Of a DNA stretch of 59,518 nucleotides, positions 1 to 20,803 are shown one piece after another (position 1 is the first letter of the stretch; each line of letters opens with the position of its first letter). The DNA lies in the IMG/VR virus record IMGVR_UViG_3300030372_001749, positions 1 through 59,518 of that record; one strand, 5' to 3'. This DNA comes from a virus (lineage: Duplodnaviria > Caudoviricetes). Below the pieces are notes generated by a model. That model was not told the origin of the DNA, did not search any database, and was given only the letters and a program-made list of their open reading frames with translations. The position numbers and the translations under genes are program-made.

Positions 1-414
1 CTATCATTAATCTGACTTGTACCATCAAAACTTAAAGTAGAAGCAATAAGGTTTACAGTAGTGCTTGAAAACTGAGTAGTTCCACTAATATCAACTGTTG
101 CTGGTGTTTCTACAACTAAAGTCCCTCCAGCATTTTTTACTGTTAAAGCCACACCTTCCAATGTCATAGCAGTAGTAGCTATATTAGCTCCTACCGAACT
201 TGTTAACACATCATTTAAACTACAACATGTAACCGTTGGGCTATCTATCCATTGTATACCTCCTCCAGTAGAGCTTAATATCTGCCCTGGGTTTCCTGTA
301 GCACCTTGTGCTGTTACCGTTACAGGATATATATCTGTACAAGATATATTACCACTTGCACCTGTAAGTACAATAGGTTTTGTGGCTGTGTGGCCTGTAT
401 CTAATACAGACTGT
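1..414. repeat. Imperfect terminal direct repeat, copy A (vs 59114-59518)
   Basis: Bases 1-62 match 59114-59175 and 360-414 match 59464-59518 exactly; the middle is divergent. Confidence 0.9.
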
Positions 415-563
415 AAATCTTGAGCAACACCACCAGCCCCTACAATATCACTTACCTTAAACGTTACCGTTTCATTATCGTTATTAACGTCTGTTCCTAT
501 AAGTAAGTCATCCGCTGCTGGGGTTACCGTAGGGTATGCTGTAGTGTTTTCAATTTTTGCCAT
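1..563 (-). CDS. Tail fibre, N-terminal part (runs off the contig start, continues near 59113)
   Basis: Open frame from ATG at 563: MAKIENTTAYPTVTPAADDLLIGTD...LQSVLDTGHTAT...FDGTSQIND. The end overlaps the 57859-59208 ORF sequence. Not in ORF track. Confidence 0.8.
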   Translation of the reverse strand, partial: MAKIENTTAYPTVTPAADDLLIGTDVNNDNETVTFKVSDIVGAGGVAQDLQSVLDTGHTATKPIVLTGASGNISCTDIYPVTVTAQGATGNPGQILSSTGGGIQWIDSPTVTCCSLNDVLTSSVGANIATTAMTLEGVALTVKNAGGTLVVETPATVDISGTTQFSSTTVNLIASTLSFDGTSQIND

Positions 564-567
564 GTCT

Positions 568-1077
568 CTATATTTCTACTATTCTATATTGAAAGTTAAT
601 AGTTAGTGTTCCATCACCTTGCGTTGGGTTACCTGTAGATGCTTTGAATAATAAGTTGTTATTACCAACAACACTTCCTGCTCCAGGGCTAACATTTGAA
701 AGACCAGTGTAAGTAGAGCCTGCATTTAGTATAGTGGTACCTACTGTATTAAGTGTTACACTATCATACTCTAAGGTTGCATCAGTAAAGTTAAACGCTT
801 GTGTATTAAACGTTGTCTTATATACGATTGTTCCGTAAGGAACAATAATTTTATTAGCACCTTGAGCCGCTATTAATATGATAGGTGTTGTGAAAGAATT
901 TAATAACTCGGCTGTTGTTAAAGTTTTTACTAAAGTCTTAGTACCAAAGAATCCCTGAAATTCATTTACGGTGCAAGTCTTTGTTGCATCGCTATCGCTT
1001 ACATCTGTTAATATAACAAAGTCATTTGCTGTTGGGGTTACATTTGGGTAAGCTGTAGTATTACTTATCTTCGCCAT
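568..1077 (-). CDS. Virion/tail accessory protein with N-terminus paralogous to the tail fibre
   Basis: MAKISNTTAYPNVTPTANDFVILTDV aligns with the tail-fibre N-terminus; Thr/Gly-rich. Confidence 0.7.
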   Translation of the reverse strand: MAKISNTTAYPNVTPTANDFVILTDVSDSDATKTCTVNEFQGFFGTKTLVKTLTTAELLNSFTTPIILIAAQGANKIIVPYGTIVYKTTFNTQAFNFTDATLEYDSVTLNTVGTTILNAGSTYTGLSNVSPGAGSVVGNNNLLFKASTGNPTQGDGTLTINFQYRIVEI

Positions 1078-8002: not shown

Positions 8003-8142
8003 CTTACGTTTAATGGTATTGTCTTAGTTAACCAATCCTCAAAAGAAATATTTACAGGTATAAACCCTTTTCTTTTAAAAGATATATAATATCCCCATTC
8101 TTGTTGGCGTTGTTCTTTGGTTAATAGTTTACTTGCTTTCAT
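7999..8142 (-). CDS. 47-aa hypothetical (MKASKLLTKEQRQQEWGYY...)
   Basis: Read manually; ATGA overlap with groEL stop. Confidence 0.5.
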   Translation of the reverse strand: MKASKLLTKEQRQQEWGYYISFKRKGFIPVNISFEDWLTKTIPLNVR

Positions 8143-9710
8143 TCTTTTCTTGCGTGTGTTATAATTGCATTAGTAGTTAGGATAGTTGTAGCAACACTGA
8201 TTGCGTTTGTCAATGCCTGTGTCGTAACCTTCGCTGGGTCTACTACACCCATCTCAAACATATCGCCATACTCTCCTGTTACCACGTTATACCCTTCATT
8301 CTTTTTTAACTTCTTGTCATAGATACTAGCACTATCCAAACCAGCGTTCTTTAAAATCTGTGCTAGTGGGGCACGAAGCGTGTCACGCAAAATTTTATTT
8401 TTAGTACTATCGCCTTTATATTTCTTAGCTAACCTATCTAGTAATAACCCACCACCAGCAACAATACCCTCTTGCAGAGCTGAACGTACCGCACATACCG
8501 CATCATCTACCCTATCGAACTTTTCTTTCTGCTCAATATCAGAGGTAGCACCAACGTATATACAACCTATACCTCCTACTAAACTTGCAATGCGTTCATT
8601 GACAAATTCACGCTCCGCCTTGTTTGTTAATCTCTCCTGTTGCTCACGCAACTCCTCAACCCTCTTAGTAATCTCATCGGTAACCTGGTTATCTTTGATA
8701 ATGATTGTAGAGTCTTTACCTACGATAATCTTGTCTGCATATCCTAGGTCCTCCATACGGATTAGTGACAGGTCATCGCCCGTACTCTCCGAGAAGTATT
8801 TAGCCCCAACAGATAATGCAATATCCTGCATCAGCTCGTGAGAACGGTAACCAAAAGAAGGAACTAAGATGTTACAGAACTTTAAACCGTTTCGCTGAAC
8901 GTTAGCAGCAAGCGTGTTGATAACGTTCCCCGAACAATTCCCAATGATAAGTAACTTCTCGCCACCATTAATGATTGGCTTGAGCACATTCTCAATCTGC
9001 AGGATGTTAGTAATCTCGGTATCACATACCAATATCTTTACACCATCGAGTATACACTCATCCTTACGGTGGTCATTGATAAACATCGGTGAGGTATATC
9101 CCCTATCAACCTTTATCCCATTAGTAACCTCCGCATAGGTCTTGTCGGTTTGTGAACGCTCAACAGTAACAATACCATCATGACCAACCTTTCTATACGC
9201 ATCCGCTATAATCCCGCCAATCTCACTATCGTTATTGGAAGAGATAGTAGCAATATCCTCTAGCATATCATCCGTAACCTCAACAGACTCCTTAGCAATG
9301 TCTGCTAAAAGTTTATCTCCCTCCTTACGAATCTCTCGTACCACCTGTATCGTATTCTCGTTCTCACCAATGTGAGACTCTCCAGCTTTTACCAAAGCCT
9401 CGGTCAATACAATAGCGGTAGTAGTTCCATCACCCGCAGTGTTCGCTGTCTTCTCTGAAGCCTGCTTCATCATACGAACCGCTAAGTTCTCTACAGGGTC
9501 CATTAAGAAAACAGACTTAGCAACCGTTACACCATCCTTGGTAACAGTCAACCCTTGTGTATGTTCACCTGATTCAATTAACACCGTCTGGCCTTGAGGC
9601 CCTAGTGTGCTCTTTACAGCGTTGGAGATTTTTGAGATGCCTGATATTAACTTCTCCCTAGCATCGTCATCGAAAGATAGGTCTTTCGGAATGTACCCTT
9701 GTTCGTTCAT
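8139..9710 (-). CDS. groEL: Chaperonin GroEL (Cpn60)
   Basis: TLGPQG, VTKDGVTVAK, AGDGTTTA, GIVAGGG, GVVDPAKV. Start set at MNEQG, downstream of promoter 9735-9742. No GGM tail. Confidence 0.97.
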   Translation of the reverse strand: MNEQGYIPKDLSFDDDAREKLISGISKISNAVKSTLGPQGQTVLIESGEHTQGLTVTKDGVTVAKSVFLMDPVENLAVRMMKQASEKTANTAGDGTTTAIVLTEALVKAGESHIGENENTIQVVREIRKEGDKLLADIAKESVEVTDDMLEDIATISSNNDSEIGGIIADAYRKVGHDGIVTVERSQTDKTYAEVTNGIKVDRGYTSPMFINDHRKDECILDGVKILVCDTEITNILQIENVLKPIINGGEKLLIIGNCSGNVINTLAANVQRNGLKFCNILVPSFGYRSHELMQDIALSVGAKYFSESTGDDLSLIRMEDLGYADKIIVGKDSTIIIKDNQVTDEITKRVEELREQQERLTNKAEREFVNERIASLVGGIGCIYVGATSDIEQKEKFDRVDDAVCAVRSALQEGIVAGGGLLLDRLAKKYKGDSTKNKILRDTLRAPLAQILKNAGLDSASIYDKKLKKNEGYNVVTGEYGDMFEMGVVDPAKVTTQALTNAISVATTILTTNAIITHARKE

Positions 9711-9744
9711 CGATTTAATTAAATTTAATTTCTGCAAATATAAT

Positions 9745-10378: not shown

Positions 10379-10480
10379 CCTAGCTAGGCTATAGCTGTTG
10401 TGCTACGTAGCTACCTAGCTTTGTCGCTGTTGTCCTAGCTGTAGCTCTAGCTATTTACCTAGTACTAGCTGTAGCTGTGC
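10379..10480. repeat. Short-repeat array (nine TAGCT in about 100 bp)
   Basis: Counted directly; in the non-coding strand-switch region. Confidence 0.85.
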
Positions 10481-10499
10481 GATTATTATCTACTATACA

Positions 10500-10515
10500 G
10501 TCTCGTTAACGAGAC
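10500..10515 (+). repeat. GTCTCG-N4-CGAGAC palindrome, copy 1
   Basis: GTCTCGTTAACGAGAC. Confidence 0.9.
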
Positions 10516-10683
10516 CTTCAAAACATTACGAGACGTAAAGAGGGAAGGCTATATGCCCCCAATGAACAAAAGAATAACAAACAAAAGACCAAATCTTAAA
10601 AAAAATTTCCCTTACTACCATTGGGATACAGAGCAAAATGTAAATTAATTTAAAAAACTGCATTGTAGAACGGATAATTATAC

Positions 10684-10691
10684 TATCTTTG
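10684..10691 (+). promoter_or_regulatory. First early promoter, -7 element TATCTTTG
   Basis: TAnnTTTG with an upstream TTG at about -33. Confidence 0.7.
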
Positions 10692-10695
10692 AACT

Positions 10696-11622
10696 ATGAA
10701 AGCACAAACAATGTACGAAAATATTGCTAACTCGCTGATAGTCAGTAAGTTAGGCCATAAGGCTTGTGTAACTAGCTGTTTATCAGCACAAAACGAAAAA
10801 AAGGCTGATATCAGCACAAATCAATTAATTATGAGTAATGTAACTGTTAACAAATCAGAAGGTTTATTTTTAAACGGTACAGTAGTAAAGAAAGCTATCA
10901 ATAAGGAGGCTGTTCTAGAACATTTGAATATGGCGCAAAAATGTGTAAATGAGAAATTTCGTCAAGAGGTTGAGGCATCAAATCTAATAGCTGATGCTTA
11001 TGCTTGGTTTACATCTAAGAAGTCAGAGGCACAGCGTACGAAATACGCTATCAAATGGACAAAAGAAGAGTTTGGTCAGAAGGCATTTGGCTTATCTAAA
11101 GCACAATTCTACAAGAAGGATGCACTAGGTAAGACAGCTTTAGAAGTTGTTGAAGGTTTTATTACTGCTGATATAACGGTAAGAATGAACGGTCTAAAAC
11201 ACAGTTTATCAATTGAGGCGTGTAACAAATTCACTAACCAATATGTGGTTAAGGATGTAACAAAAATGACTAAGAAGGAAGCAAAAAAATGTATTTCAGA
11301 TGCGATAGCGAAATACGTTGAAGATGCTAAAAACGGTAAGCTATCTAAGGCTAAGGCAAAAGGTAAGTCTGATGCTAAGGATAAGGCTAAAGGTAGTAAG
11401 AATCGTATTACTGTATCGATGTCTAAGTACGGTGGTGACAAAGGAATGTCGCTAAACATAGACAAAGACGGTAAGCTACAAGCGATGACGCCAAACGTAG
11501 ATAAGAAGATGGCGACAAAGCTGATTACTGACCTAGCGAAAGCGTTCAAGGATGCGGGTATCTTCGCTGATGGTAAAGTACCAAGTGAAGTGAAGGCTAT
11601 ACTAGAAACGGTTAAGCTATAG
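10696..11622 (+). CDS. First early protein, Lys/Ala-rich, possible DNA-binding (alternative start 10831)
   Basis: HTH-like TKEEFGQKAFGLSKAQFYK and a basic linker. ATG 10696 would be leaderless; ATG 10831 has a typical A-rich context. Confidence 0.75.
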   Translation: MKAQTMYENIANSLIVSKLGHKACVTSCLSAQNEKKADISTNQLIMSNVTVNKSEGLFLNGTVVKKAINKEAVLEHLNMAQKCVNEKFRQEVEASNLIADAYAWFTSKKSEAQRTKYAIKWTKEEFGQKAFGLSKAQFYKKDALGKTALEVVEGFITADITVRMNGLKHSLSIEACNKFTNQYVVKDVTKMTKKEAKKCISDAIAKYVEDAKNGKLSKAKAKGKSDAKDKAKGSKNRITVSMSKYGGDKGMSLNIDKDGKLQAMTPNVDKKMATKLITDLAKAFKDAGIFADGKVPSEVKAILETVKL

Positions 11623-11630
11623 GAAAAAAT

Positions 11631-11658
11631 GCGAGGGTCTCGTCAGCGAGACCTTCGC
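11631..11658 (+). repeat. Palindrome copy 2 with extended stem
   Basis: GCGAGG-GTCTCG TCAG CGAGAC-CTTCGC. Confidence 0.9.
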
Positions 11659-11659
11659 T

Positions 11660-11708
11660 CCTTACTAGGATGTGTATCCTAGCTGATGATTCCAAAAGGA
11701 TGAAAAGG
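11660..11708 (+). ncRNA. Hammerhead ribozyme, type III
   Basis: CCTTA^ CTAGGAT-GTGT-ATCCTAG CTGATGA T TCC-AAAA-GGA T GAAA AGG. Core CUGAUGA/GAAA and stems I-III present; predicted cut after A11664. Confidence 0.8.
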
Positions 11709-11733
11709 TAACTAAAAATTAAAATTTATTGAA

Positions 11734-11907
11734 ATGAAAAAATTAAATTGGGGAACGTGGTTGTGTATAATCACAGCTGTGTTAAGTATTATTGGAATGT
11801 GTATCTGCGATTGTGTAGATATCAATATGGAAGGGATATTTGCATTAACTACGCTGGCTTCAATCTTTGGAATTATAGCGTCTATGATGGAGGCTGAAGG
11901 ATATTAA
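11734..11907 (+). CDS. 57-aa two-TM membrane protein
   Basis: Read manually: MKKLNWGTWLCIITAVLSIIGMCICDCVD...FALTTLASIFGIIASMMEAEGY. Confidence 0.65.
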   Translation: MKKLNWGTWLCIITAVLSIIGMCICDCVDINMEGIFALTTLASIFGIIASMMEAEGY

Positions 11908-11919
11908 AATTATAAATCA

Positions 11920-11945
11920 GCAGGGTCTCGTCAGCGAGACCTTGC
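11920..11945 (+). repeat. Palindrome copy 3 with extended stem
   Basis: GCAGG-GTCTCG TCAG CGAGAC-CTTGC. Confidence 0.9.
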
Positions 11946-11959
11946 ATAAACCAAAACAA

Positions 11960-12196
11960 ATGAAAACAATTATTAAAACAGTAGTATGTTTAACGATAGC
12001 TTTCACTAGCTACGGACAAACAAAAAAAGACAGCGTGACAATTGATAGATTCCAAGTACAAGAAATCTTAAACACGATTGAGGATTTAATAGAATGGAAT
12101 AAAGAAGATGAGTTTAATGGCCAAGAACCTAGAACGAATGAAAACTATTGGTTAGGTAAAATGAGAGATGAATTAATTAATGAACTAAAAAAATAG
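11960..12196 (+). CDS. Exported small protein (signal peptide)
   Basis: MKTIIKTVVCLTIAFTSYG-Q resembles a Bacteroidota SPI signal with Gln at +1. Confidence 0.65.
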   Translation: MKTIIKTVVCLTIAFTSYGQTKKDSVTIDRFQVQEILNTIEDLIEWNKEDEFNGQEPRTNENYWLGKMRDELINELKK

Positions 12197-12198
12197 GT

Positions 12199-12345
12199 AT
12201 GAGAGAAGAAGAATATTACGACACATTACTTTTGTGTAGTGGCTTTACACAAGAACAAATAAATGATATGTCAGACGAGGACAAAGAAATGAATTTAGGA
12301 ATGTTATACAATGCTATTCATTGTGCGTTTTTTAAAACTAGATAA
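12199..12345 (+). CDS. 48-aa acidic hypothetical
   Basis: Read manually; fills the gap between ORFs. Confidence 0.45.
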   Translation: MREEEYYDTLLLCSGFTQEQINDMSDEDKEMNLGMLYNAIHCAFFKTR

Positions 12346-12346
12346 T

Positions 12347-12538
12347 ATGGAATTTAAACCTAATGAAATGTATTACTGTACAGTAAAGTACGGTGGTACG
12401 GGTGGAACGTATTCCACATACGAGAAAATTTTTAAGAGTGAGTCTCACTACCTTAATTGGTGTACGTTTATGATGCGTAACTACGGTGGAAAGGTATTGG
12501 AGATTAAACATCATTCAGAAATTTTAAAAAATAAATAG
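12347..12538 (+). CDS. Hypothetical early protein
   Basis: ORF track, start moved to MEFKP. Confidence 0.6.
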   Translation: MEFKPNEMYYCTVKYGGTGGTYSTYEKIFKSESHYLNWCTFMMRNYGGKVLEIKHHSEILKNK

Positions 12539-12545
12539 CAAACTA

Positions 12546-12577
12546 TTTGGATATGTGCAATAAATGTATAATATTTG
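12546..12577 (+). promoter_or_regulatory. Early promoter (TTTG-N20-AATATTTG)
   Basis: Similar to promoters at 13341-13363 and 15156-15186; one mismatch to TAnnTTTG. Confidence 0.6.
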
Positions 12578-12602
12578 TACAGATTGATTTAGTGCTGAGG
12601 TA

Positions 12603-12674
12603 GACCATTGAACATTAGGTTGTTATGTAGAGCGATACTACCAATGGTCACGATAAGGGTCTCGTTGACGAGAC
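12603..12674 (+). ncRNA. tRNA-like three-way junction plus palindrome copy 4 (element 1)
   Basis: P1 GACCATTG/CAATGGTC; P2 AACA-TTAGGT-TGTT; P3 GTAG-AGCGATA-CTAC; then GTCTCGTTGACGAGAC. Confidence 0.65.
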
Positions 12675-12700
12675 AAGTATTAATAAATAAACAAACCAAT

Positions 12701-12874
12701 ATGAAAACAATTTTAATTACAATCAGTTTAGTAATTGCATACGGAAGTTATGCAAACGATAATGTCAAAGAAGTTGATGTTATAGAGTATAGAAAAAAGA
12801 AAAGAAAAAAGAAAAAGAAAAAAGGATGTTACAATTCTAGAAGAAGATGGGATAAAAAATATTATATGAAATAA
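12701..12874 (+). CDS. Signal-peptide protein with poly-Lys tail
   Basis: MKTILITISLVIAYGSYA...RKKKRKKKKKKG. Confidence 0.6.
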   Translation: MKTILITISLVIAYGSYANDNVKEVDVIEYRKKKRKKKKKKGCYNSRRRWDKKYYMK

Positions 12875-12886
12875 AAATAAAATAAA

Positions 12887-13309
12887 ATGAGAACAAATAA
12901 TAAAAAAGTACGTGAGAACGTAAGGAAGCATATCCTGGAGAGTATGCACGATTATAATGAAGAAAGTTTTAAAAGTTTTGATGATGCTAGAGAATATCTA
13001 GTAAAAGAATTTATAAGGGTTTACAATCATCAATACAATAAAAATAGATGGCCAAACAATCAAGATAGGTTTCAAAATTATCTAATGGGAATAGTGTTTA
13101 ATTTTAAGTTTACTGATTATGATATTGAAAAGTTTCTAAATGGATTAGGTATAAATCCAAAAGAAAAGAAATATACAGGCGAACAAATGTGGCGAATGTA
13201 TGCCTATCTAATTTGGCGAGAAATACAAGAAACCTATGATGAAATAATTTATATAGAACACAAATCTAAAATGAGGATGGTATCTAGTTATGTGGAATCA
13301 GAATTTTAA
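12887..13309 (+). CDS. Hypothetical early protein
   Basis: 140-aa ORF with A-rich start context. Confidence 0.75.
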   Translation: MRTNNKKVRENVRKHILESMHDYNEESFKSFDDAREYLVKEFIRVYNHQYNKNRWPNNQDRFQNYLMGIVFNFKFTDYDIEKFLNGLGINPKEKKYTGEQMWRMYAYLIWREIQETYDEIIYIEHKSKMRMVSSYVESEF

Positions 13310-13340
13310 ACTAAAAATAATTGAATGAGAACTTTTTAAT

Positions 13341-13363
13341 GTATAATTAATGTATTATATTTG
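13341..13363 (+). promoter_or_regulatory. Early promoter (-7 TATATTTG)
   Basis: GTATAATTAATGTATTATATTTG, near-identical to 15164-15186. Confidence 0.65.
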
Positions 13364-13382
13364 TAGAAAGTTAGTAATAATA

Positions 13383-13454
13383 CTACCATTGAACATAGGA
13401 TGTGAAGCAGAGCAAAACTGACGATGGTAGCGATAAAAGTCTAGTCGACTAGAC
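13383..13454 (+). ncRNA. tRNA-like three-way junction plus palindrome copy 5 (element 2)
   Basis: P1 CTACCATTG/CGATGGTAG; P2 ACA-TAGGA-TGT; P3 CAG-AGCAAAA-CTG; then GTCTAG TCGA CTAGAC. Confidence 0.65.
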
Positions 13455-13478
13455 AAGTATTAATAAAATAAAATAGAT

Positions 13479-13631
13479 ATGAAAAAAGAAATAGAACAGT
13501 TAATTAAATTGATAATTAATCCTATACACCTACAAGATAGTGATAGTGAGGATTATATATCTGATGCAGAAATGGTAGAGATAGTATTAAAAAAATTAAA
13601 AGAGATTGTTAATTATGATGAACACAAATGA
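13479..13631 (+). CDS. 50-aa hypothetical
   Basis: Read manually (MKKEIEQLIKLIINP...). Confidence 0.55.
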   Translation: MKKEIEQLIKLIINPIHLQDSDSEDYISDAEMVEIVLKKLKEIVNYDEHK

Positions 13632-13848
13632 AAAAATACATAAGGCATTCAATCCAAAGAAGAGGATTGTAGAAGAGAATGAGTATAAACCAAAGCTAAG
13701 GATTCAAAGTTCGGTATATCCATCTGATGAAGAAAGGCAATGGTATCCTACAATAACTGCAGTAAACAATGCAGATAGACGTAGAACATTCGACCATTTT
13801 GATGAGGAGTTACTAAATAGAATCTTAGATATTAAACAAAATAAATAA
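13615..13848 (+). CDS. Hypothetical early protein
   Basis: ORF track, ATG start. Confidence 0.6.
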   Translation: MMNTNEKIHKAFNPKKRIVEENEYKPKLRIQSSVYPSDEERQWYPTITAVNNADRRRTFDHFDEELLNRILDIKQNK

Positions 13849-13849
13849 T

Positions 13850-13880
13850 GTCTCGTTGACGAGACCTAATATAAATAAAA
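13850..13880 (+). repeat. Palindrome copy 6 within a 31-bp repeat identical to 16586-16616
   Basis: GTCTCGTTGACGAGACCTAATATAAATAAAA. Confidence 0.9.
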
Positions 13881-13891
13881 AAATAGAACAA

Positions 13892-14164
13892 ATGAATAAA
13901 TTAGAAAAAGTGTTAGAACAAATTGATGAACAAGTAATGAGCATATGTAGTGAACATATGAAAGGAGATTGTATAATAGATGATACACTAGAACATCATA
14001 TACTAGGAATCAAAAGAGGTATTATTGATACATATGGTGTACCATATCATTTAGAACCACATTGGAATGGTAGTCATACATTTAAGATTGTATTTGATGA
14101 TGACAATTTCAATGCAGATATGGAGGCACAAGATTATGATGTGTTTGGAGAAAATAAAATATAA
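13892..14164 (+). CDS. Hypothetical early protein
   Basis: Start moved to the TAGAACAAATG context. Confidence 0.65.
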   Translation: MNKLEKVLEQIDEQVMSICSEHMKGDCIIDDTLEHHILGIKRGIIDTYGVPYHLEPHWNGSHTFKIVFDDDNFNADMEAQDYDVFGENKI

Positions 14165-14181
14165 ACTAAAAAATAGAACAG

Positions 14182-14382
14182 ATGGAAAATAACATTGGTA
14201 AAGTAGTAAGGGTAGTAGAACAACCATCAATTATTGGAGAGATAATCAGAATGGATGGACATAAATTTGTCATTAGAGAATATGATATAATAGATGATGA
14301 AGGAGACAATACACTTATCTTTCATAGTGATGAAGTAGAATTTATTAACGAACTAAAAACAAATAGAACAGATGAAAAGTAA
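14182..14382 (+). CDS. Small SH3-like hypothetical
   Basis: IGKVVRVV...IGEII beta pattern. Confidence 0.6.
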   Translation: MENNIGKVVRVVEQPSIIGEIIRMDGHKFVIREYDIIDDEGDNTLIFHSDEVEFINELKTNRTDEK

Positions 14383-14659
14383 ATGGACAGTAGATGATTA
14401 TAAAAAATCATATGATGATAGAATGGATAAGGCATTTAGAGATATGAAGAAGGAGGGATTAGAGGATTATGATAGCCATCAATTTATTGTAGACGAAGGA
14501 GATTTTACTTCAGAAGAAATAGTAGGTTATTACTATGAAACGTATCGAGATAAAGCCAAAGAAATGTGGGAATCCAATACTAAAGATAGGGATAAAAGAT
14601 TATCTGAAGCATATAGAGTTCGTGCTAAACAAGTAGATATGATATTTAATAAAATATAA
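14372..14659 (+). CDS. Hypothetical early protein
   Basis: ORF track. Confidence 0.65.
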   Translation: MKSKWTVDDYKKSYDDRMDKAFRDMKKEGLEDYDSHQFIVDEGDFTSEEIVGYYYETYRDKAKEMWESNTKDRDKRLSEAYRVRAKQVDMIFNKI

Positions 14660-14676
14660 ACTAAAAAATAGAACAG

Positions 14677-14859
14677 ATGGGAGCAATTAAAGAAAGACGA
14701 CTGGAGTTACTAGATGATTTAGTAACGATGATAATTAAAGAAAAGTATGGCGACAGTATGTATAAGAACTGTGGAATACACCTAAAAGATAAGGTGTTAG
14801 ATACATACGAGAGGGTGTATGATGAGGTGGAAGAAATATTTATAAATTATATAGACTAA
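14677..14859 (+). CDS. Hypothetical early protein
   Basis: ORF track. Confidence 0.6.
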   Translation: MGAIKERRLELLDDLVTMIIKEKYGDSMYKNCGIHLKDKVLDTYERVYDEVEEIFINYID

Positions 14860-14862
14860 ATA

Positions 14863-14880
14863 GGTCTCGTTGACGAGACC
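14863..14880 (+). repeat. Palindrome copy 7
   Basis: GGTCTCGTTGACGAGACC. Confidence 0.9.
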
Positions 14881-14906
14881 AAGTATTAACCAAAACAAAA
14901 ACAATT

Positions 14907-15119
14907 ATGAGAGAAGAATTTAATAAGTTATTTGATGTGCTAGTTGACCATCAACTAGCAACAAAAGAAGAAATAGTTTTAGTGTGTTGTATCAATGGAC
15001 ACAACCTAGAATCTTTAGAAAGTATTCTATATGCTAGAACATTATATCGTTCACTAGCACAATATATGATGTGTGAAGCTGACGAATGTTTATATGATAA
15101 AGAACAAGAAAAAATATGA
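14907..15119 (+). CDS. Hypothetical early protein
   Basis: ATKEEIVLVCCING...LESILYART. Confidence 0.65.
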   Translation: MREEFNKLFDVLVDHQLATKEEIVLVCCINGHNLESLESILYARTLYRSLAQYMMCEADECLYDKEQEKI

Positions 15120-15155
15120 TTGATGAATATATTTTTAAAATAATTACACAACAGC

Positions 15156-15186
15156 TTGTATATGTATAATTAATGTGTTATATTTG
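15156..15186 (+). promoter_or_regulatory. Early promoter TTG-N20-TATATTTG
   Basis: Fits the Bacteroidota -33/-7 consensus. Confidence 0.7.
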
Positions 15187-15215
15187 TACATAATATTAAC
15201 AATAAAAAAACAATT

Positions 15216-15653
15216 ATGAAGAATGTAGAATTTAAAATGGATGTAAGCATCCCGTTAGACTCAATTGAAGAGGTATTAATTACTGCACTAGAAGGTGGTA
15301 TAAATTATTGGGGATGTCTTGATGGGGAGGATATAAGTGTATTTCAAAAATGGTTTGATGAGAAGATAGAAGCAGGAGAACTCAAGCGAGATGATAGTGT
15401 ACATTATGGATGGATGGATGCAATGTTTCAAGGGTGTCCACATAAGATAGCAGTATATGATATAGAGGATGAGGAGGATGAAGAACCTTTAGGTTATCTA
15501 TCTATGGAAAACATAGGTAAAGGATTACAGTTAGCTATGCGAGATTACCCTAAGACATATGCACAACACTTTCCCGAGTATGATAGTGGAGATGTTATAT
15601 CGGCAGATGTATTGTTTCAGTTAATGGTAATGGGAGACGTAGTATACGGATAA
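15216..15653 (+). CDS. Acidic hypothetical protein (ALEGGINYW...ADVLFQLMVMGDVVYG)
   Basis: ORF track. Confidence 0.75.
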   Translation: MKNVEFKMDVSIPLDSIEEVLITALEGGINYWGCLDGEDISVFQKWFDEKIEAGELKRDDSVHYGWMDAMFQGCPHKIAVYDIEDEEDEEPLGYLSMENIGKGLQLAMRDYPKTYAQHFPEYDSGDVISADVLFQLMVMGDVVYG

Positions 15654-15663
15654 ATATAAATCG

Positions 15664-15689
15664 GTGGGGTCTCGTCAGCGAGACTCCAC
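15664..15689 (+). repeat. Palindrome copy 8 with extended stem
   Basis: GTGGG-GTCTCG TCAG CGAGAC-TCCAC. Confidence 0.9.
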
Positions 15690-15704
15690 ATAAACTAAAA
15701 TAAA

Positions 15705-15938
15705 ATGGAAAAAAGAACAATGTTTAAAGTAATGTGGGTAAATGAGTATGGAAGTCCGGAGATGAATCAAGATGGGTTTCATACAGAAGATGAAGCTGAG
15801 GAGTATTGTAAAGATTTGTCGGAGTCTTTTAAAGACCAAGAATACTACGTAACCGAGTATACTCACAGACCTACAAGAAGATATGATGCAGGAATATCGG
15901 GAGGAGTAGATGGATGGGAAGATATGTTTAATTATTAA
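15705..15938 (+). CDS. Hypothetical early protein
   Basis: ORF track. Confidence 0.65.
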   Translation: MEKRTMFKVMWVNEYGSPEMNQDGFHTEDEAEEYCKDLSESFKDQEYYVTEYTHRPTRRYDAGISGGVDGWEDMFNY

Positions 15939-15949
15939 AATAAAATAAA

Positions 15950-16240
15950 ATGGAAGGAGAAATTAAAATGACTGTTATGACAGACAGAATTAAAACAAAA
16001 GAGTTTTTAATAAAGTGGATTGGAAATACATTGTGTGAAAATAATATACCACCCTACTATGCGTCAGCAAAATTAGAGGAGGTGTTTGGTATAAAAATAC
16101 ACACACATATATCAAACTTCATTGAGTTTGCTAAAGATAATAACCTTGATGATATAGATATTTCAACTACCCTAGCCCACGATGTTAGTGGAGCATTAAA
16201 CAATGATAAACTAATGATACCAAGAGTTGGAGGATATTAA
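15950..16240 (+). CDS. Hypothetical early protein
   Basis: ORF track. Confidence 0.65.
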   Translation: MEGEIKMTVMTDRIKTKEFLIKWIGNTLCENNIPPYYASAKLEEVFGIKIHTHISNFIEFAKDNNLDDIDISTTLAHDVSGALNNDKLMIPRVGGY

Positions 16241-16259
16241 TTAAATAAAATAAAATAAA

Positions 16260-16583
16260 ATGAAAGAGAAAGTATTAGAACACCAAGGAATTACAATCTT
16301 AACCTACTGGAACTCAGAAAATTTTGACATAGAGGTAGGTGAGGAGACATCAGTAGATGGATATAGTATATACTATATGCGATATAAAGATGAGCCACTC
16401 AATATACAAGAACATATATTCTATGATGAGTATGGTTTAACTGAGGCATTGCAAGAAAAAATACAAGATGAGACAGACATAACATTTATGGTATGGGATG
16501 ACGAATTGCTAGAGGATATAGATTGGGATGAGATAGCCTCAAACCTAGGTATAGATGATGATGAACCGTTCTTAAAGATGTAA
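16260..16583 (+). CDS. Highly acidic protein (possible DNA mimic)
   Basis: D/E-rich, 107 aa; mimic role is inference only. Confidence 0.65.
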   Translation: MKEKVLEHQGITILTYWNSENFDIEVGEETSVDGYSIYYMRYKDEPLNIQEHIFYDEYGLTEALQEKIQDETDITFMVWDDELLEDIDWDEIASNLGIDDDEPFLKM

Positions 16584-16585
16584 TA

Positions 16586-16616
16586 GTCTCGTTGACGAGA
16601 CCTAATATAAATAAAA
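16586..16616 (+). repeat. Palindrome copy 9
   Basis: Identical to 13850-13880. Confidence 0.9.
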
Positions 16617-16618
16617 TT

Positions 16619-16861
16619 ATGAAAACAGACACAGACATAACACAGGTAACAAGATTTATGTACTTCGCATACAACTTTCCAATAGGTTGGATGGAAAAGG
16701 TATGGGCAGATGATGAACATTTACTTAACCACTTTCAAGATAAGTGGGCAGGAGGTACAGCAAAATGTGGTACATATAGATTCTTTGATTTCTATATGAA
16801 CCTAGATGCACAAAATAAAGATAAGTTAGTACATTGGATTGACAATAATTATAAACCATAA
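16619..16861 (+). CDS. Hypothetical early protein
   Basis: Start moved to MKTDT. Confidence 0.65.
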   Translation: MKTDTDITQVTRFMYFAYNFPIGWMEKVWADDEHLLNHFQDKWAGGTAKCGTYRFFDFYMNLDAQNKDKLVHWIDNNYKP

Positions 16862-16872
16862 AATAAATAAAT

Positions 16873-17100
16873 ATGACAGTAGCAGAAAGTAGAGACAGAT
16901 TAAGAGATAGATATATCGATTGGTATATGACAATTCATAACCTACCAACCAATGAAGACGCAACGTACACTTGGTGGGAAATGGAGAAAGATTGTTATGA
17001 GTGGTGCGATAAAGAAAGAACATATGTACCAATGAGTGAAACCAAAACTCTAATGATTATGAGACAGTGGTTTAGAAGACAGAAAAATTTATATAAATAA
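16873..17100 (+). CDS. Hypothetical early protein
   Basis: ORF track. Confidence 0.6.
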   Translation: MTVAESRDRLRDRYIDWYMTIHNLPTNEDATYTWWEMEKDCYEWCDKERTYVPMSETKTLMIMRQWFRRQKNLYK

Positions 17101-17108
17101 TAAAACAA

Positions 17109-17297
17109 ATGGAAGATAAAAATGAACGTAATGGTGTAGTATATCCTTTTGAGGAAGGAAATGACTACTGGACTATAGAAGATGGTGAGGTAATATGGTC
17201 TTGTTGGGATGATGGAAGTGAGGAAATGCACGATAAAAATCCAAACAAAAAATATTTTAGGACAAAAGAATCTGCTATTAATTATTTAAAACAATAG
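17109..17297 (+). CDS. Hypothetical early protein
   Basis: YPFEEGNDYWTI...YFRTKESA. Confidence 0.65.
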   Translation: MEDKNERNGVVYPFEEGNDYWTIEDGEVIWSCWDDGSEEMHDKNPNKKYFRTKESAINYLKQ

Positions 17298-17302
17298 AAC
17301 AA

Positions 17303-17470
17303 ATGGAAACAACAACGATTAAAATAACTAGACAGGAGTTAATTATTATTCAAGACCTAGTATCAAAGGAAAGGTTTAAGTTGATGGCTTTAGATGTCAA
17401 CGATGAGTTAGATATAGTTAAAGATTTAAGTTTAAGATTATATAAAAAAGTTAAACAAAAGTTTGAATAG
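17303..17470 (+). CDS. 55-aa hypothetical (METTTIKITRQELIII...)
   Basis: Read manually; TAGAACAAATG start context. Confidence 0.55.
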   Translation: METTTIKITRQELIIIQDLVSKERFKLMALDVNDELDIVKDLSLRLYKKVKQKFE

Positions 17471-17492
17471 AAATAATAAAGTATTATTTTTG
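17462..17492 (+). promoter_or_regulatory. Promoter of replication operon, TTTG-N19-TATTTTTG
   Basis: Consensus match. Confidence 0.65.
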
Positions 17493-17517
17493 ATAAACAT
17501 AAAAACAAATAGAACAA

Positions 17518-17811
17518 ATGAAGAAAGAAGCATTCAATAATTATGCTGAGGCAATAGCACAGCAGTTTCATTTAAGCTTAGATAGTTTATTTGAAAAGAC
17601 AAAGAAGCGTGAGATAACAGACGCAAGACAACTGTTATACTATCTGTGTATGGAGAGACCAATTAGGATAAGTTATATCCAAAGATTCTTAGAGGATAAC
17701 GGGTACTCGGTGGCTCACAGTACAATCATTCATGGCTACAAGAAAGCTAAGGAGTTGATTGATAGCGACCAGGATTTTAAAGATATAGTCAAGAAGATTC
17801 AAGATGTATAG
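17518..17811 (+). CDS. DnaA C-terminal (domain IV)-like HTH protein
   Basis: KTKKREITDARQLLYYL...HSTIIHGYKK. Confidence 0.75.
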   Translation: MKKEAFNNYAEAIAQQFHLSLDSLFEKTKKREITDARQLLYYLCMERPIRISYIQRFLEDNGYSVAHSTIIHGYKKAKELIDSDQDFKDIVKKIQDV

Positions 17812-18220
17812 TAAGGAGGATATATTTAATCAAATCAAATCCGATGCCTCTGCAATAAAAAGTCCAATGCCTCATGGTGAGGGTTATATAAACCTAGGAA
17901 TAAAGGTGCAGAAGTTTGGGGATACCATAGAGATTATAAACTTAGCTAGAAGTGGTACATACTACGTACCTTGTACTACGTATGAAGAGACATACTTTTT
18001 TAATTATGGGTACAAAGAGGGTGCAGTGAGGTTATGTATAGCTAACACCAAGCGAAAGCTAAAAACGGTAGAAGATAAGATAAGGGGGGAGGTGACAACC
18101 CGTAGGAACAACAAGCATATTATGTCACTGAAAGCAAGACGAGAAGGACTGCTTAATAAATATGCAGAACGTAAATTACAATTAAATAAAATCACAAATG
18201 ACAAAGAAAGAAATAATTAA
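17804..18220 (+). CDS. Hypothetical protein
   Basis: ORF track; overlaps neighbours. Confidence 0.65.
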   Translation: MYSKEDIFNQIKSDASAIKSPMPHGEGYINLGIKVQKFGDTIEIINLARSGTYYVPCTTYEETYFFNYGYKEGAVRLCIANTKRKLKTVEDKIRGEVTTRRNNKHIMSLKARREGLLNKYAERKLQLNKITNDKERNN

Positions 18221-18491
18221 ATTTCTAGAAGACAATTCAAAGGAATTATTTTTAGAGACCTTAAGGAATAAGGTTGACTCAAAAGCACACAAAGATAATT
18301 TAATAAGGTGGGCAACTGCTCATAAGATATTAAAGAAAGTCAATCCCGATTTTGATGAAAACATAGAGTGGGCAGAACTAGAATATAAGCACACAAAAAA
18401 AGTTAAAGAGTTTTTTAAAACTAAAGAGTCTCGACCTTATTTTTGGAAAGGATTATTTGAAGGAAAATTACCTACACATATAATTAAATAA
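18198..18491 (+). CDS. Hypothetical protein
   Basis: ORF track. Confidence 0.6.
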   Translation: MTKKEIIKFLEDNSKELFLETLRNKVDSKAHKDNLIRWATAHKILKKVNPDFDENIEWAELEYKHTKKVKEFFKTKESRPYFWKGLFEGKLPTHIIK

Positions 18492-18509
18492 TAAATAAAA
18501 TAAAATCAA

Positions 18510-19112
18510 ATGGAAAAGAAAAATGTATTTAAAGAACTATCCTCGATAGATGTATCATCGAAGATAGAAAAGAAAGGTCAACTAGATTACATCAGTTGGG
18601 CAAACAGTTGGGCGATGTTAAAGAATAAATATCCTAATGCCCAACGTATGGTGTATGAGTCAGAACATACCGGACTAAACTACCATACCGATGGTAACAC
18701 TGCGTATGTAAAGGTTGGTATCAAGGTGGGAGATATAGAACATATAGACTACCTACCCGTTATGAACTTCCGTAACCAATCTATCCCCGTAGATAAGATT
18801 ACAAGTATGGATGTGAACACTGCAATACAACGTAGTACTACCAAGGCTATAGCTATGCATGGCTTAGGATTAAGTCTATGGATTGGTGAGGACACTAAGG
18901 TATCTACCCCATCTGCACCAGTAAGTAAGACACCTATACCATCTAAAGATGCAGTAATAGAACTGAAGATTGGGGATAATAATTGGGAGAAGGTACTTAA
19001 GTATATAGCATCTAATAAAGATATTGGTCTATCTAAAATCGTTAAGAACCTAGAGACTAAGTATAAGATAAAGCCTTTAGTAAAGAAAGAACTCTCTAAA
19101 CATATCAAGTAA
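18510..19112 (+). CDS. Sak3/DUF1071-like single-strand annealing protein
   Basis: IEKKGQLDYISWANSW...YLPVMNFRN...IQRSTTKAIAMHGLGLSLW. Confidence 0.85.
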   Translation: MEKKNVFKELSSIDVSSKIEKKGQLDYISWANSWAMLKNKYPNAQRMVYESEHTGLNYHTDGNTAYVKVGIKVGDIEHIDYLPVMNFRNQSIPVDKITSMDVNTAIQRSTTKAIAMHGLGLSLWIGEDTKVSTPSAPVSKTPIPSKDAVIELKIGDNNWEKVLKYIASNKDIGLSKIVKNLETKYKIKPLVKKELSKHIK

Positions 19113-19846
19113 TGGAAGCATTAAAGTTATTGAAGGATGACTCCCATTATTATGGAGAGTTAGGGAGACAGTATTTATCTAACTCAGATATTATTACACT
19201 ACTGAATGACCCTAAGAATTTCAGAGAAGAGAAACTAATGAGCAAGGCAATGCTCATTGGTAGATACTTCCATACTGCTATGCTTGAACCACACAAGATT
19301 GAGAGTGAAGAGTTTGTAAGTATAGATGCATCGAGTCGTAACACTAAACTTTATAAGGAAGGATTACAGTATTACAATAGAGACTTAATGATGCTTAACA
19401 AAGAGAAGCAGGATATAGACAAGGCAATACAGACGATGCAGTCTAACCTAGAGTTTCATGATGCTATCTATGAGGATGGTAATGAGTTTGAGGTACCGGC
19501 AATAAAAGAGTTGTTTGGTATAGCGTGGAAAGGTAAGGCAGATATTATCACTAAGGATATAATCATAGACCTAAAGACCACAAGTAATATAAAAGACTTT
19601 AGGTACTCAGCTAAGAAGTATAACTACGATAGCCAAGCGTGGCTATACAATCAGTTGTTTGGCAAGTCATTAGTATTCTATGCTATAGATAAGACAACGT
19701 TTGAGTTAGGAATTTTTGAACCGAGTGAAACATTTTTAGAGTATGGAAAAAATAAAGTTGAAAGAGCACTGGAGATATACAATAAGTTTTATGGTGACAG
19801 TGCTACGGAGAATGTCGAGAACTATATCATTAAAGAAATTCTTTAA
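19112..19846 (+). CDS. RecE/ExoVIII-like PD-(D/E)XK exonuclease
   Basis: LSNSDI, GRYFHTAMLEP, KGKADI...IIDLKTT, YDSQAWLY; adjacent to the annealase. Confidence 0.85.
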   Translation: MEALKLLKDDSHYYGELGRQYLSNSDIITLLNDPKNFREEKLMSKAMLIGRYFHTAMLEPHKIESEEFVSIDASSRNTKLYKEGLQYYNRDLMMLNKEKQDIDKAIQTMQSNLEFHDAIYEDGNEFEVPAIKELFGIAWKGKADIITKDIIIDLKTTSNIKDFRYSAKKYNYDSQAWLYNQLFGKSLVFYAIDKTTFELGIFEPSETFLEYGKNKVERALEIYNKFYGDSATENVENYIIKEIL

Positions 19847-19865
19847 GAGACAAAGAGAAGGGGTT

Positions 19866-19967
19866 ATGTTTTTGGAAATTCCAACACAAATCACAACCCA
19901 AGCTGAACGTGATAGATTCATGGAGGCAACAATGGAAAAGTTGGAAAGAATAATTTATAAAAAATAA
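19866..19967 (+). CDS. Possible 33-aa protein
   Basis: 3' part of ORF-track 19743..19967. Confidence 0.35.
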   Translation: MFLEIPTQITTQAERDRFMEATMEKLERIIYKK

Positions 19968-19975
19968 TTTTTATT

Positions 19976-20236
19976 ATGGCAGAAGAAAAAATCTATGTCG
20001 GAAATGGTGTGTCAAAATTTGACGGACAGATGGTAAGTATGAGTGTATGTCTTAGTGACCTACCAAAGGAACACATGTTTGAGTACAACGGTAAGCGTTA
20101 CATCAAACTAAATGTGTCTGCAAAGAGAGACGGTGCAGATGATTATGGTAAGACTCACTATGTTACTGTCGATACTTTTAAACCGGAACCAAAGAAAGAA
20201 GAGCCTAAACAACAAGAGGCTGACCTACCTTTCTAA
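19976..20236 (+). CDS. Putative ssDNA-binding protein
   Basis: Beta-rich with acidic ...EADLPF tail; follows the recombination genes. Confidence 0.65.
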   Translation: MAEEKIYVGNGVSKFDGQMVSMSVCLSDLPKEHMFEYNGKRYIKLNVSAKRDGADDYGKTHYVTVDTFKPEPKKEEPKQQEADLPF

Positions 20237-20250
20237 TTATGTAAACACCG

Positions 20251-20285
20251 AGAGAAAGGGTCTCGTTGACGAGACCTTTTCTTTT
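20251..20285 (+). terminator. Palindrome copy 10 built into a terminator-like hairpin
   Basis: AGAGAAAGG-GTCTCG TTGA CGAGAC-CTTTTCTTTT. Confidence 0.7.
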
Positions 20286-20289
20286 GCTT

Positions 20290-20452
20290 ACCTTATGTTG
20301 ATATGTCGATTTCAAATGATTCTTATATAGCTTATATATTTTTCTTATTTATATATATATTTTTATTTATTTATTTATTTATTTATTAACATATTAACAT
20401 AAAGAATATAGAAGTACTATAAATACTAGAAAGTAAGTAACATAAAATCAAC
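20290..20452. other. AT-rich origin-like region B with TYRACAT iterons
   Basis: ATGTTGATATGTCGA, then (TTTA)n, then TTAACATATTAACATAAA; upstream of the primase. Confidence 0.55.
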
Positions 20453-20803
20453 ATGAAACATAACAGTGATTTTAAATATGACCTTGAGGTTGGTAGAGTA
20501 GCAGAAAGAATACTAGAAAAATTGTTAGAGAATAAAACAATTGAAGTAAAAAGAGACCTACAGGCTATTAATACAGGTAACATATATGTGGAGTATGAGA
20601 GTAGAGATAAACCAAGTGGCTTAGCCCATACTAAGGCAGACTATTACTGCTACTTTATTACAGACGGTAGAATGTTTTTAATAGAGACAGAAGAACTAAA
20701 AGAACTTTGCAGAAAATATATCGGAACAGACAGAGATAGGAGAGGTGGGGATTCAGATACAAGTAAAGGAATATTATTACCCTTAACAGACTTAATTAAA
20801 TAA
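20453..20803 (+). CDS. PD-(D/E)XK nuclease-like protein
   Basis: IEVKRD...TGNIYVEYESRDKPSG...TKADYY. Confidence 0.7.
   Translation: MKHNSDFKYDLEVGRVAERILEKLLENKTIEVKRDLQAINTGNIYVEYESRDKPSGLAHTKADYYCYFITDGRMFLIETEELKELCRKYIGTDRDRRGGDSDTSKGILLPLTDLIK

Follow-up and report, generated by a model that had tools for sequence, protein, structure and literature searches.

Positions 11660-11708 (+) of an uncultured marine phage, IMG/VR virus record IMGVR_UViG_3300030372_001749, were described in an initial annotation made from the letters alone as a compact type III hammerhead lying after the first early gene. The locus raises the question of whether this 49-base motif is a genuine hammerhead RNA and, if so, what purpose a cut at this position would have. 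The stretch of DNA analysed, referred to below as the window, is the complete virus record of 59,518 bases (CheckV completeness 100). As far as comparative analysis of the sequence reaches, the motif is confirmed as a genuine type III hammerhead RNA with predicted self-cleavage. With a probability of roughly 0.8 it is a hammerhead of the type carried by phage PaP3, with a U.U mismatch at 10.1/11.1 and a 3-bp stem II, that would cut a polycistronic early RNA after A11664. A securely identified hammerhead is thereby added to an uncultured 59.5-kb marine phage, at a site that is useful for testing the purpose of the cut.

Structure of the motif

All elements of the motif lie on the plus strand and are given in hammerhead numbering. 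The 5' strand of stem III, CCUU (C16.4, C16.3, U16.2 and U16.1), occupies 11660-11663 with U16.1 at 11663, and is followed by A17 at 11664, with the predicted scissile bond at 11664/11665. Stem I consists of 7 bp (11665-11671 with 11676-11682) closed by the loop GUGU (11672-11675), after which the catalytic core strand CUGAUGA (C3-A9) runs from 11683 to 11689. Stem II (11690..11701) begins with U10.1 at 11690 and ends with U11.1 at 11701, with UCC (11691-11693) paired to GGA (11698-11700) around the loop AAAA (11694-11697). G12, A13 and A14 (11702-11704) then lead into the 3' strand of stem III, AAGG (A15.1, A15.2, G15.3 and G15.4; 11705-11708), with A15.1 at 11705. All positions of the hammerhead consensus core given in section 13 of Perreault et al. 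2011 (PMC3088659) are present together with the A15.1-U16.1 pair and H17, and the topology is that of type III, stems I and II being closed by loops, stem III being open and cleavage falling on the 5' side. The intact CUGAUGA/GAAA core and the UUA cleavage triplet of the initial annotation were all located by coordinate, and its 7-bp stem I, 3-bp stem II, 4-bp stem III and U-U at 10.1/11.1 were found in the sequence as described. The distance to the downstream gene, given there as about 70 nt, is 69 nt when measured between 11665 and the start codon (ATG, 11734). As stem I has no downstream partner, this copy cannot be read as type I.

Both strands of the 59,518 bases were scanned using our own descriptor for types I, II and III, which returned 11660-11708 as the sole match and no type I or type II reading anywhere in the window. 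A relaxed type III descriptor (stem I of at least 4 bp, stem II of at least 3 bp with a 10.1/11.1 mismatch allowed, and stem III of at least 3 bp) gave a mean of 0.027 matches per window on 1000 dinucleotide-preserving shuffles, and a match as good as the candidate (7/3/4 bp) was obtained in 0 of the 1000. This result alone was not decisive because the scan had covered very many windows, and relatives of the motif were therefore sought.

The family of related ribozymes

A search pattern consisting of the core and stem II of the window copy with a free loop (23 letters, 19 of them fixed bases) gave 101 matches in 99 stretches of viral contigs. The descriptor assigned 85 of these to type III and 13 to type I, one more (in L180) was recognized as type I by eye and two were cut by the end of the locus; no complete match failed to fold as a hammerhead. 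In bacterial genome contigs the same pattern gave 65 matches in 63 stretches, 56 of them type III with the same loop 1, and most of the record titles name metagenome-assembled genomes of Saccharibacteria, Paceibacterota/Parcubacteria and other Patescibacteria.

An alignment (A1) was made of 53 distinct type III copies, including those of the window and of the related locus L092 and the second copy of the related locus L093. Stem I is 99.7% paired in this alignment, six of its seven pairs changing on both sides to give four to six pair types each, and the inner 4 bp of stem III (columns 4-7 with 52-55) are 100% paired with CG, UA, GC and AU as alternatives. The covariation score of the 53 copies was 0.692, compared with 0.197 for shuffled partners and 0.06-0.11 for slid partners, and none of 500 shuffled-partner runs reached 0.692, a control that ignores relatedness. 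Stem II and the core strand could not vary in A1, as both were fixed by the search pattern. When RNAalifold was given no structure and only the 51 copies left after removal of the window and L092, it returned the same three-way junction. A covariance model (R2) of these 51 copies detected a single match on the window, full-length over model positions 1-55 of 55, with a score of 69.8 bits and E=1.2e-16, of which the part contributed by the core and stem II, and some of the pairing, follows by construction from the pattern-based collection. Independent information comes from the 7-bp length of the stems, from the compensatory changes, from the U-G-W-G-U-R consensus that the copies share in loop 1 and from the invariance of U16.1. 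Homology, covariation, RNAalifold and the leave-out model all support the reading of the motif as a compact type III hammerhead.

Of the 53 aligned copies, 90% or more have A as H17. Loop 1 has an invariant U followed by G (90% or more of the copies), U and R, and loop 2 has A at positions 2-3 in 90% or more and an invariant A at position 4. This conservation may reflect the loop-loop contact considered in the initial annotation, a tertiary contact of the kind that characterizes extended (fast) hammerheads; no covariation between loops 1 and 2 is visible in the aligned family. Copies obtained as by-catch, and not selected by the pattern, include G-C, U.U and A.A versions with varied stems II, the U.U class making up 8 of 35. 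The combination of a UUA triplet and a compensated stem III also occurs in L164, an unrelated contig.

The identity of the 10.1/11.1 positions is associated with that of base 17. Over all fetched loci (L010-L173) and the window, type III copies with U.U carry A17 in 53 cases, U17 in 6 and C17 in 1, compared with C17 in 17 and A17 in 7 of the G-C copies; in type I copies U.U occurs with A17 in 12 cases and with C17 in 0, and G-C with C17 in 51 and A17 in 5. Fisher's test gave p ~1e-10 for each type, uncorrected for relatedness, making this association a concrete lead for ribozyme enzymology.

DNA contigs from one marine metagenome run (X3) match only the ribozyme core region (11666-11705), with loose ends at 11666 and 11671 before it and at 11705 behind it and with flanks that are unlike the window on both sides. 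Judged from this match, that sample contains further carriers, all with the same hammerhead.

Conservation in close and distant relatives

Homologs of the 308-amino acid open reading frame (ORF) upstream of the ribozyme, with 87-100% amino acid identity, were found in four metagenome loci (L090-L093), and the ribozyme and the hairpin that precedes it are kept in all four. The ribozyme copy is identical in L090, L091 and L093. L093 is identical to the window at 89 of 89 bases over the stretch that begins at the stop codon and includes the whole ribozyme, and at 836 of 927 bases in the gene itself. The copy in L092 contains two changes at the tip of stem I, one in a loop base and one converting the closing U-A pair to U.G, both of which preserve the structure.

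The genes that follow are different. L093 contains three tandem hairpin and hammerhead modules approximately 440 nt apart, with two additional ORFs of 107 and 111 amino acids, each preceded by its own module, before the homolog of the window's 57-amino acid ORF, which sits after the third module. In L092 a homolog of the 111-amino acid ORF comes directly next, and the leader in the window reads as a chimera of leaders 1 and 3 of L093. As the downstream ORFs differ between the window, L092 and L093, whole cassettes come and go between modules. These insertions and deletions of whole ORFs, bounded by hairpin, hammerhead and leader and seen when window 11620-11740 is compared with L093:3180-4180 and L092:1040-1185, resemble the cassette shuffling that takes place at repeated regulatory elements in T4-type phages.

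More distant homologs of the 308-amino acid ORF, at 25-34% identity, occur in 12 loci. The junction after them contains a hairpin and a type III hammerhead in two, a type I hammerhead in one and a hairpin only in seven, and is unclear in the remaining two. The same syntenic site thus occurs with a hairpin alone, with a hairpin and a type III ribozyme, or with a type I ribozyme, providing a natural comparison for the role of the cut.

Related viral contigs identified through the primase/helicase numbered 232. From these, 80 loci were retained, each including as much as 10 kb of upstream sequence. The descriptor identified 26 hammerheads in 19 of these loci (L011, L014, L019, L023-L026, L028, L030, L032, L033, L035, L041, L046, L047, L065, L066, L081 and L082), all of type I, mostly canonical and up to three per locus. 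All 26 lie on the primase strand in the upstream region between small ORFs, the copies in L024 being located between a stop codon and the next ATG, and none was reported at the Rfam gathering score. None of the window's three early ORFs had a tblastn match in the 80 loci.

Observations against the assignment

Several observations weigh against the assignment, beginning with Rfam. The check that the initial annotation had proposed, Infernal with the Hammerhead_3 model (RF00008), was negative, with no match at E<=10. No hammerhead model was reported at the plus-strand site in a search of 11560-11800 at E<=10, RF00008 searched separately against the site gave no match, and no Rfam family matched the whole window at gathering score. 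The matches that were obtained at E<=10 in 11560-11800, CRISPR-DR25 and a 12.3-bit fragment of Hammerhead_1 on the minus strand of the hairpin, were judged to be chance. A search of 10400-20500 at E<=10 gave no ribozyme at any hairpin, and a gathering-score search of the loci of seven relatives gave tRNA only.

The three tandem copies of L093 show how RF00008, with a gathering cut-off of 48.5 bits, responds to this family. The copy with G10.1-C11.1 and GUC scored 41.9 bits (E=1.7e-7), so that even the canonical paralog falls below the cut-off; the copy with U.U and GUA scored 27.1 bits (E=0.0026), and the copy with U.U and UUA, identical to that of the window, was not listed. Textbook type I hammerheads in L024 likewise reached 21-27 bits against RAGATH-1-hammerhead and Hammerhead_3, far under the cut-offs, and were unseen at gathering score. 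As controls and paralogs also score low, the negative result reflects the narrow seed of the model rather than the absence of a hammerhead, and by this comparison the Rfam miss of the window copy is a false negative. The pipeline described in section 13 of PMC3088659 rejected hits with a 10.1/11.1 mispair unless they had been tested, which may explain the poor representation of this subfamily in Rfam. The Rfam hammerhead models therefore miss a large natural subfamily, comprising the 101 viral matches and the 56 type III copies among the 65 in bacterial genome contigs.

The remaining points concern the motif itself and the material available. The canonical G10.1-C11.1 pair, the most conserved of the stem pairs, is absent and is replaced by the U.U mismatch at 11690/11701, which lowers only the label of canonical, being a documented natural variant: section 8 of PMC3088659 describes the U10.1-U11.1 mismatch and stems II of 1-2 bp (often only two pairs) and gives weak stems III as common, and the traits called atypical in the initial annotation (U-U, short stems II and III) fall within this variation. 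A UUA triplet in combination with a U16.2-A15.2 pair is uncommon, being present in 3 of the 53 family copies. The hammerhead fold of the 55-mer has an energy of -10.9 kcal/mol, 0.2 above the minimum free energy, and ranks 28th of 53 in the family; the isolated 49-mer folds with no unusual stability (z = -1.46), and in the minimum free energy structure of a 121-nt context UCCU (11659-11662) pairs with an upstream AGGA and stem III is not formed. The alignments (A1 and A2) were gathered with the window's own pattern and filtered for a stem I of at least 4 bp and a stem III of at least 3 bp. The RNA evidence consists of contigs only, from three RNA-library runs, which leave 11612-11813 uncovered. 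Finally, a hammerhead of PaP3 is listed among the active core variants by Perreault et al. 2011 (PMC3088659), and PaP3 contains two hammerheads; we infer that the variant assayed was the U.U copy, as it is the only PaP3 copy that departs from the consensus.

The upstream hairpin

The GTCTCG hairpin that the initial annotation placed upstream of the ribozyme is a 12-bp hairpin at 11631..11658 (+). A single nucleotide separates it from stem III, and its apex, GGTCTCG-TCAG-CGAGACC (11636-11653), is conserved. Hairpins of the form GTCTCG...CGAGAC occur at nine sites in the window (10499-10516, 11636-11653, 11924-11941, 12658-12675, 13849-13866, 14863-14880, 15668-15685, 16585-16602 and 20259-20276), all in intergenic gaps of the plus-strand gene cluster and usually 15-30 nt before an ATG. 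The apex, consisting of GTCTCG, a 4-nt loop and CGAGAC, is conserved, and the stem extensions are non-conserved and covarying; 100 shuffles contained no such hairpin. Only one of the nine sites carries a ribozyme, the next copy (11924..11941, +) already being without one. The hairpin at 11631-11658 was rejected as an intrinsic terminator, as it has no T-run, TCCTTACT comes next and the terminator scan does not call it; a T-run is present only at the copy at 20259.

The order of hairpin, ribozyme, leader and ORF is conserved in the family. Of 52 family copies examined, 32 have, by our own count, a hairpin of 6 bp or more whose end lies 0-8 nt upstream of stem III. Three of the 52 have no ORF in range, and in 45 of the other 49 the distance from stem III to the ORF start is 17-36 nt. 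The pattern loci, 0.70 Mb in total, contain 100 hairpins of the more general form GTSTC...GASAC, of which 38 precede a hammerhead core, and the relatives that use type I contain 2 in 1.28 Mb. This complementary distribution of hairpin and type I ribozyme fits a role of the hairpin as a 3' cap, since in type I the ribozyme body stays on the upstream fragment, and the hairpin may accordingly cap the 3' end of the upstream fragment. Related apexes of the form GTGTC...GACAC are also present in other phages, some beside a hammerhead and some not.

In most copies the hairpin ends 0-2 nt before stem III, and the ribozyme must therefore be transcribed through it. A promoter for a hairpin-recognising polymerase was considered on account of a 3116-amino acid ORF and the conserved apex, and was rejected at the ribozyme sites, to which the rejection is confined, because the hairpin is transcribed through there. 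A degenerate hairpin pattern matched seven loci in viral contigs, which have no tblastx similarity to the window and were treated as chance.

Genomic context

The window contains tailed-phage genes for a portal, a terminase and a primase/helicase. The named relatives of the primase are Flavobacterium and Maribacter phages and the runs that contain the window's DNA are marine metagenomes, which suggests a marine host of the Flavobacteriia type. A cluster of small ORFs extends on the plus strand from approximately 10.7 to 26 kb. The 308-amino acid ORF (10696..11622, +) is the first plus-strand ORF of this putative early cluster and the 57-amino acid ORF (11734..11907, +), with two hydrophobic stretches recognized by eye, is the second; neither has a Pfam family. 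The ribozyme is separated from the start codon of the latter by an A/U-rich leader of 25 nt (11709..11733, +). The 308-amino acid ORF had no match in the viral contig collection and a single partial match, at 29%, in the phage collection, and a blastn search with 2 kb of the region gave no match.

The phage also encodes a Cpn60/GroEL-type chaperonin (8139-9737, -; PF00118, E=2e-53), homologs of which occur at 55-59% identity in many hammerhead-bearing contigs. The 3116-amino acid ORF (26563-35913, -) lies amid structural genes and has no Pfam or PHROG family.

Proposed mechanism and alternatives

In the proposed mechanism the plus-strand gene cluster would be read through as a polycistronic RNA, the three-way junction would fold once the 3' strand of stem III had been made, and the RNA would cut itself after A11664. 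The upstream product would be the mRNA of the 308-amino acid ORF, with a 2',3'-cyclic phosphate end 6 nt past the 12-bp hairpin. The downstream product would begin with a 5'-OH at C11665 and comprise the folded ribozyme body, the 25-nt leader and the 57-amino acid ORF. Both the cleavage of this particular copy and the read-through transcription are predicted from the arrangement described above; the hairpin and the ribozyme body could then act as protective ends of single-gene mRNAs, and the cut may have an effect on mRNA stability or translation.

A broader reading that combines several of these elements is put forward tentatively. Hairpin, type III hammerhead and A-rich leader would together constitute a portable 'punctuation' module of marine and other podophages, in which the ribozyme makes the RNA ends and the GTSTC...GASAC hairpin caps the upstream mRNA, as the type I body does. 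The repeated modules would at the same time be joints for the gain and loss of early-gene cassettes, and U10.1.U11.1 would represent an alternative active-site arrangement coupled to A17 rather than a crippled variant.

Among the alternatives, the one that survives best, itself unlikely, is that the ribozyme is active but serves mainly for something other than producing stable single-gene mRNAs. It might be a regulated switch or translation control of the downstream ORF, or the repeated module of hairpin, ribozyme and leader might matter chiefly as a joint for recombination between early-gene cassettes. The window, L092 and L093 do differ by whole ORF cassettes bounded by modules, the leader of the window is chimeric, and the PeSL elements of T4-type phages are reportedly comparable shuffling joints. 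In phage PaP4 the start codon of the first coding sequence lies within the 3' strand of stem III, which would couple folding to translation. In the window, however, 25 nt separate the ribozyme from the start codon, and any element that is repeated may recombine as a side effect. Strict conservation of the core together with covariation of the stems points to selection on the RNA fold and not merely to repeat identity.

Less likely again is the possibility that the motif is a true homolog that has become slow or dead, a relic at a site where the hairpin alone works, as could be expected from the U.U mismatch, the UUA triplet, the 4-bp stem III and the competing pairing. Eight of the nine hairpin sites in the window have no ribozyme, and the ribozyme is dispensable at such sites, since seven syntenic loci after distant homologs of the 308-amino acid ORF have the hairpin only. 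The RF00008 scores also fall from 41.9 bits for the G-C paralog to 27.1 for a U.U copy and to nothing for the window copy, and the minimum free energy structure of the wider context sequesters the 5' strand of stem III. A decaying copy is however difficult to reconcile with a core in which all positions are intact, with loops that match the family consensus, and with a sequence that L090, L091 and L093 share unchanged and that has only structurally neutral changes in L092, while the adjacent gene has diverged by approximately 10%. The unusual traits also recur elsewhere: UUA is found with a compensated stem III in the unrelated L164, the U.U class makes up 8 of the 35 by-catch copies outside the search pattern, and PaP3 has an active variant (PMC3088659), its U.U copy being the only one there that departs from the consensus.

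That the motif is a chance match to a loose consensus, without RNA function, is very improbable: the hammerhead consensus is short, very many windows were scanned, the relaxed descriptor gives 0.027 matches per shuffled window and Rfam reports nothing at the site, but with 0 of 1000 shuffles as good as the candidate, 85 homologous copies of the same fold with compensatory changes, a leave-out model at E=1.2e-16 and a site kept across diverged relatives, this explanation is already refuted as far as sequence analysis reaches. A PaP3-type hammerhead that would cut the early RNA is the preferred reading.

Comparison with known systems

Intergenic hammerheads in phages, short stems and the U.U mismatch have been in the literature since 2011, and a near-identical variant is present in a well-known phage. 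The size of the subfamily in marine phages and in genomes labelled as Patescibacteria, its pairing with a conserved hairpin and the association of U.U with A17 were not found in the open literature, as far as this was searched.

A blastn search of named phages with the 55-mer gave 78 records, 72 of them Pseudomonas phages of the PaP3/PaP4 group. The R2 model scores PaP3 at 72.6 bits, PaP4 at 74.9 and Clew-1 at 76.4, compared with 69.8 for the window. These Bruynoghevirus copies have the same topology and the same CUGAUGA-U-UCC-NAAA-GGA-U-GAAA core and stem II as the window. The U.U type III copy of PaP3 (AY078382.2, 45416-45470, -) abuts orf71, the first gene at that end, and also shares the 7-bp stem I, the UGUGUR loop, the short stem III and a site upstream of a small early ORF. 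It differs in having a GUA triplet where the window has UUA and UAAA in loop 2 where the window has AAAA, and the host of PaP3 is a pseudomonad whereas a marine Flavobacteriia-type host is suggested for the window. In PaP4 the ribozyme lies at 234-288 and the start codon of the first coding sequence (285..590) falls inside the 3' strand of stem III, in contrast to the start codon of the window downstream of its ribozyme; folding and the start of translation may be coupled in PaP4. The second hammerhead of PaP3 (approximately 44040-44112, -) is a canonical type I with G10.1-C11.1, GUC and a long stem III, located between small early ORFs. PaP3-like Pseudomonas phages are culturable and carry the same variant.

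Tandem hammerheads flank single genes in prophage transcripts of the Agrobacterium tumefaciens ardA region, Clostridium scindens and Azorhizobium caulinodans (PMC3088659, section 6). As described in that section they resemble the present system in that ribozymes punctuate a polycistronic phage RNA between small genes, with three such copies in L093; here, by contrast, type III copies are paired with a conserved upstream hairpin and most of the hairpins in the window have no ribozyme.

Of the Rfam families, RF00008 shares the core, the three helices and the open stem III, and the L093 paralogs align to the full-length model. The window copy differs from it in having U.U instead of G10.1-C11.1, U16.2-A15.2 instead of a G-C pair, and a shorter stem II. 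The RAGATH-1 hammerhead (RF03152), a type I family, is the best Rfam match for the type I copies of the primase relatives at 22.9-27.1 bits (E 0.06-0.5), far under its cut-off of 56.3 bits, and differs from the window copy in topology.

Because cleavage by a type III hammerhead falls on the 5' side of the ribozyme, the downstream mRNA obtains a defined 5'-OH end regardless of the upstream sequence. The engineered insulator RiboJ, which reportedly combines the sTRSV hammerhead with a hairpin downstream of the ribozyme, works alike, with the difference that in the window the hairpin lies upstream and would be carried by the other cleavage product.

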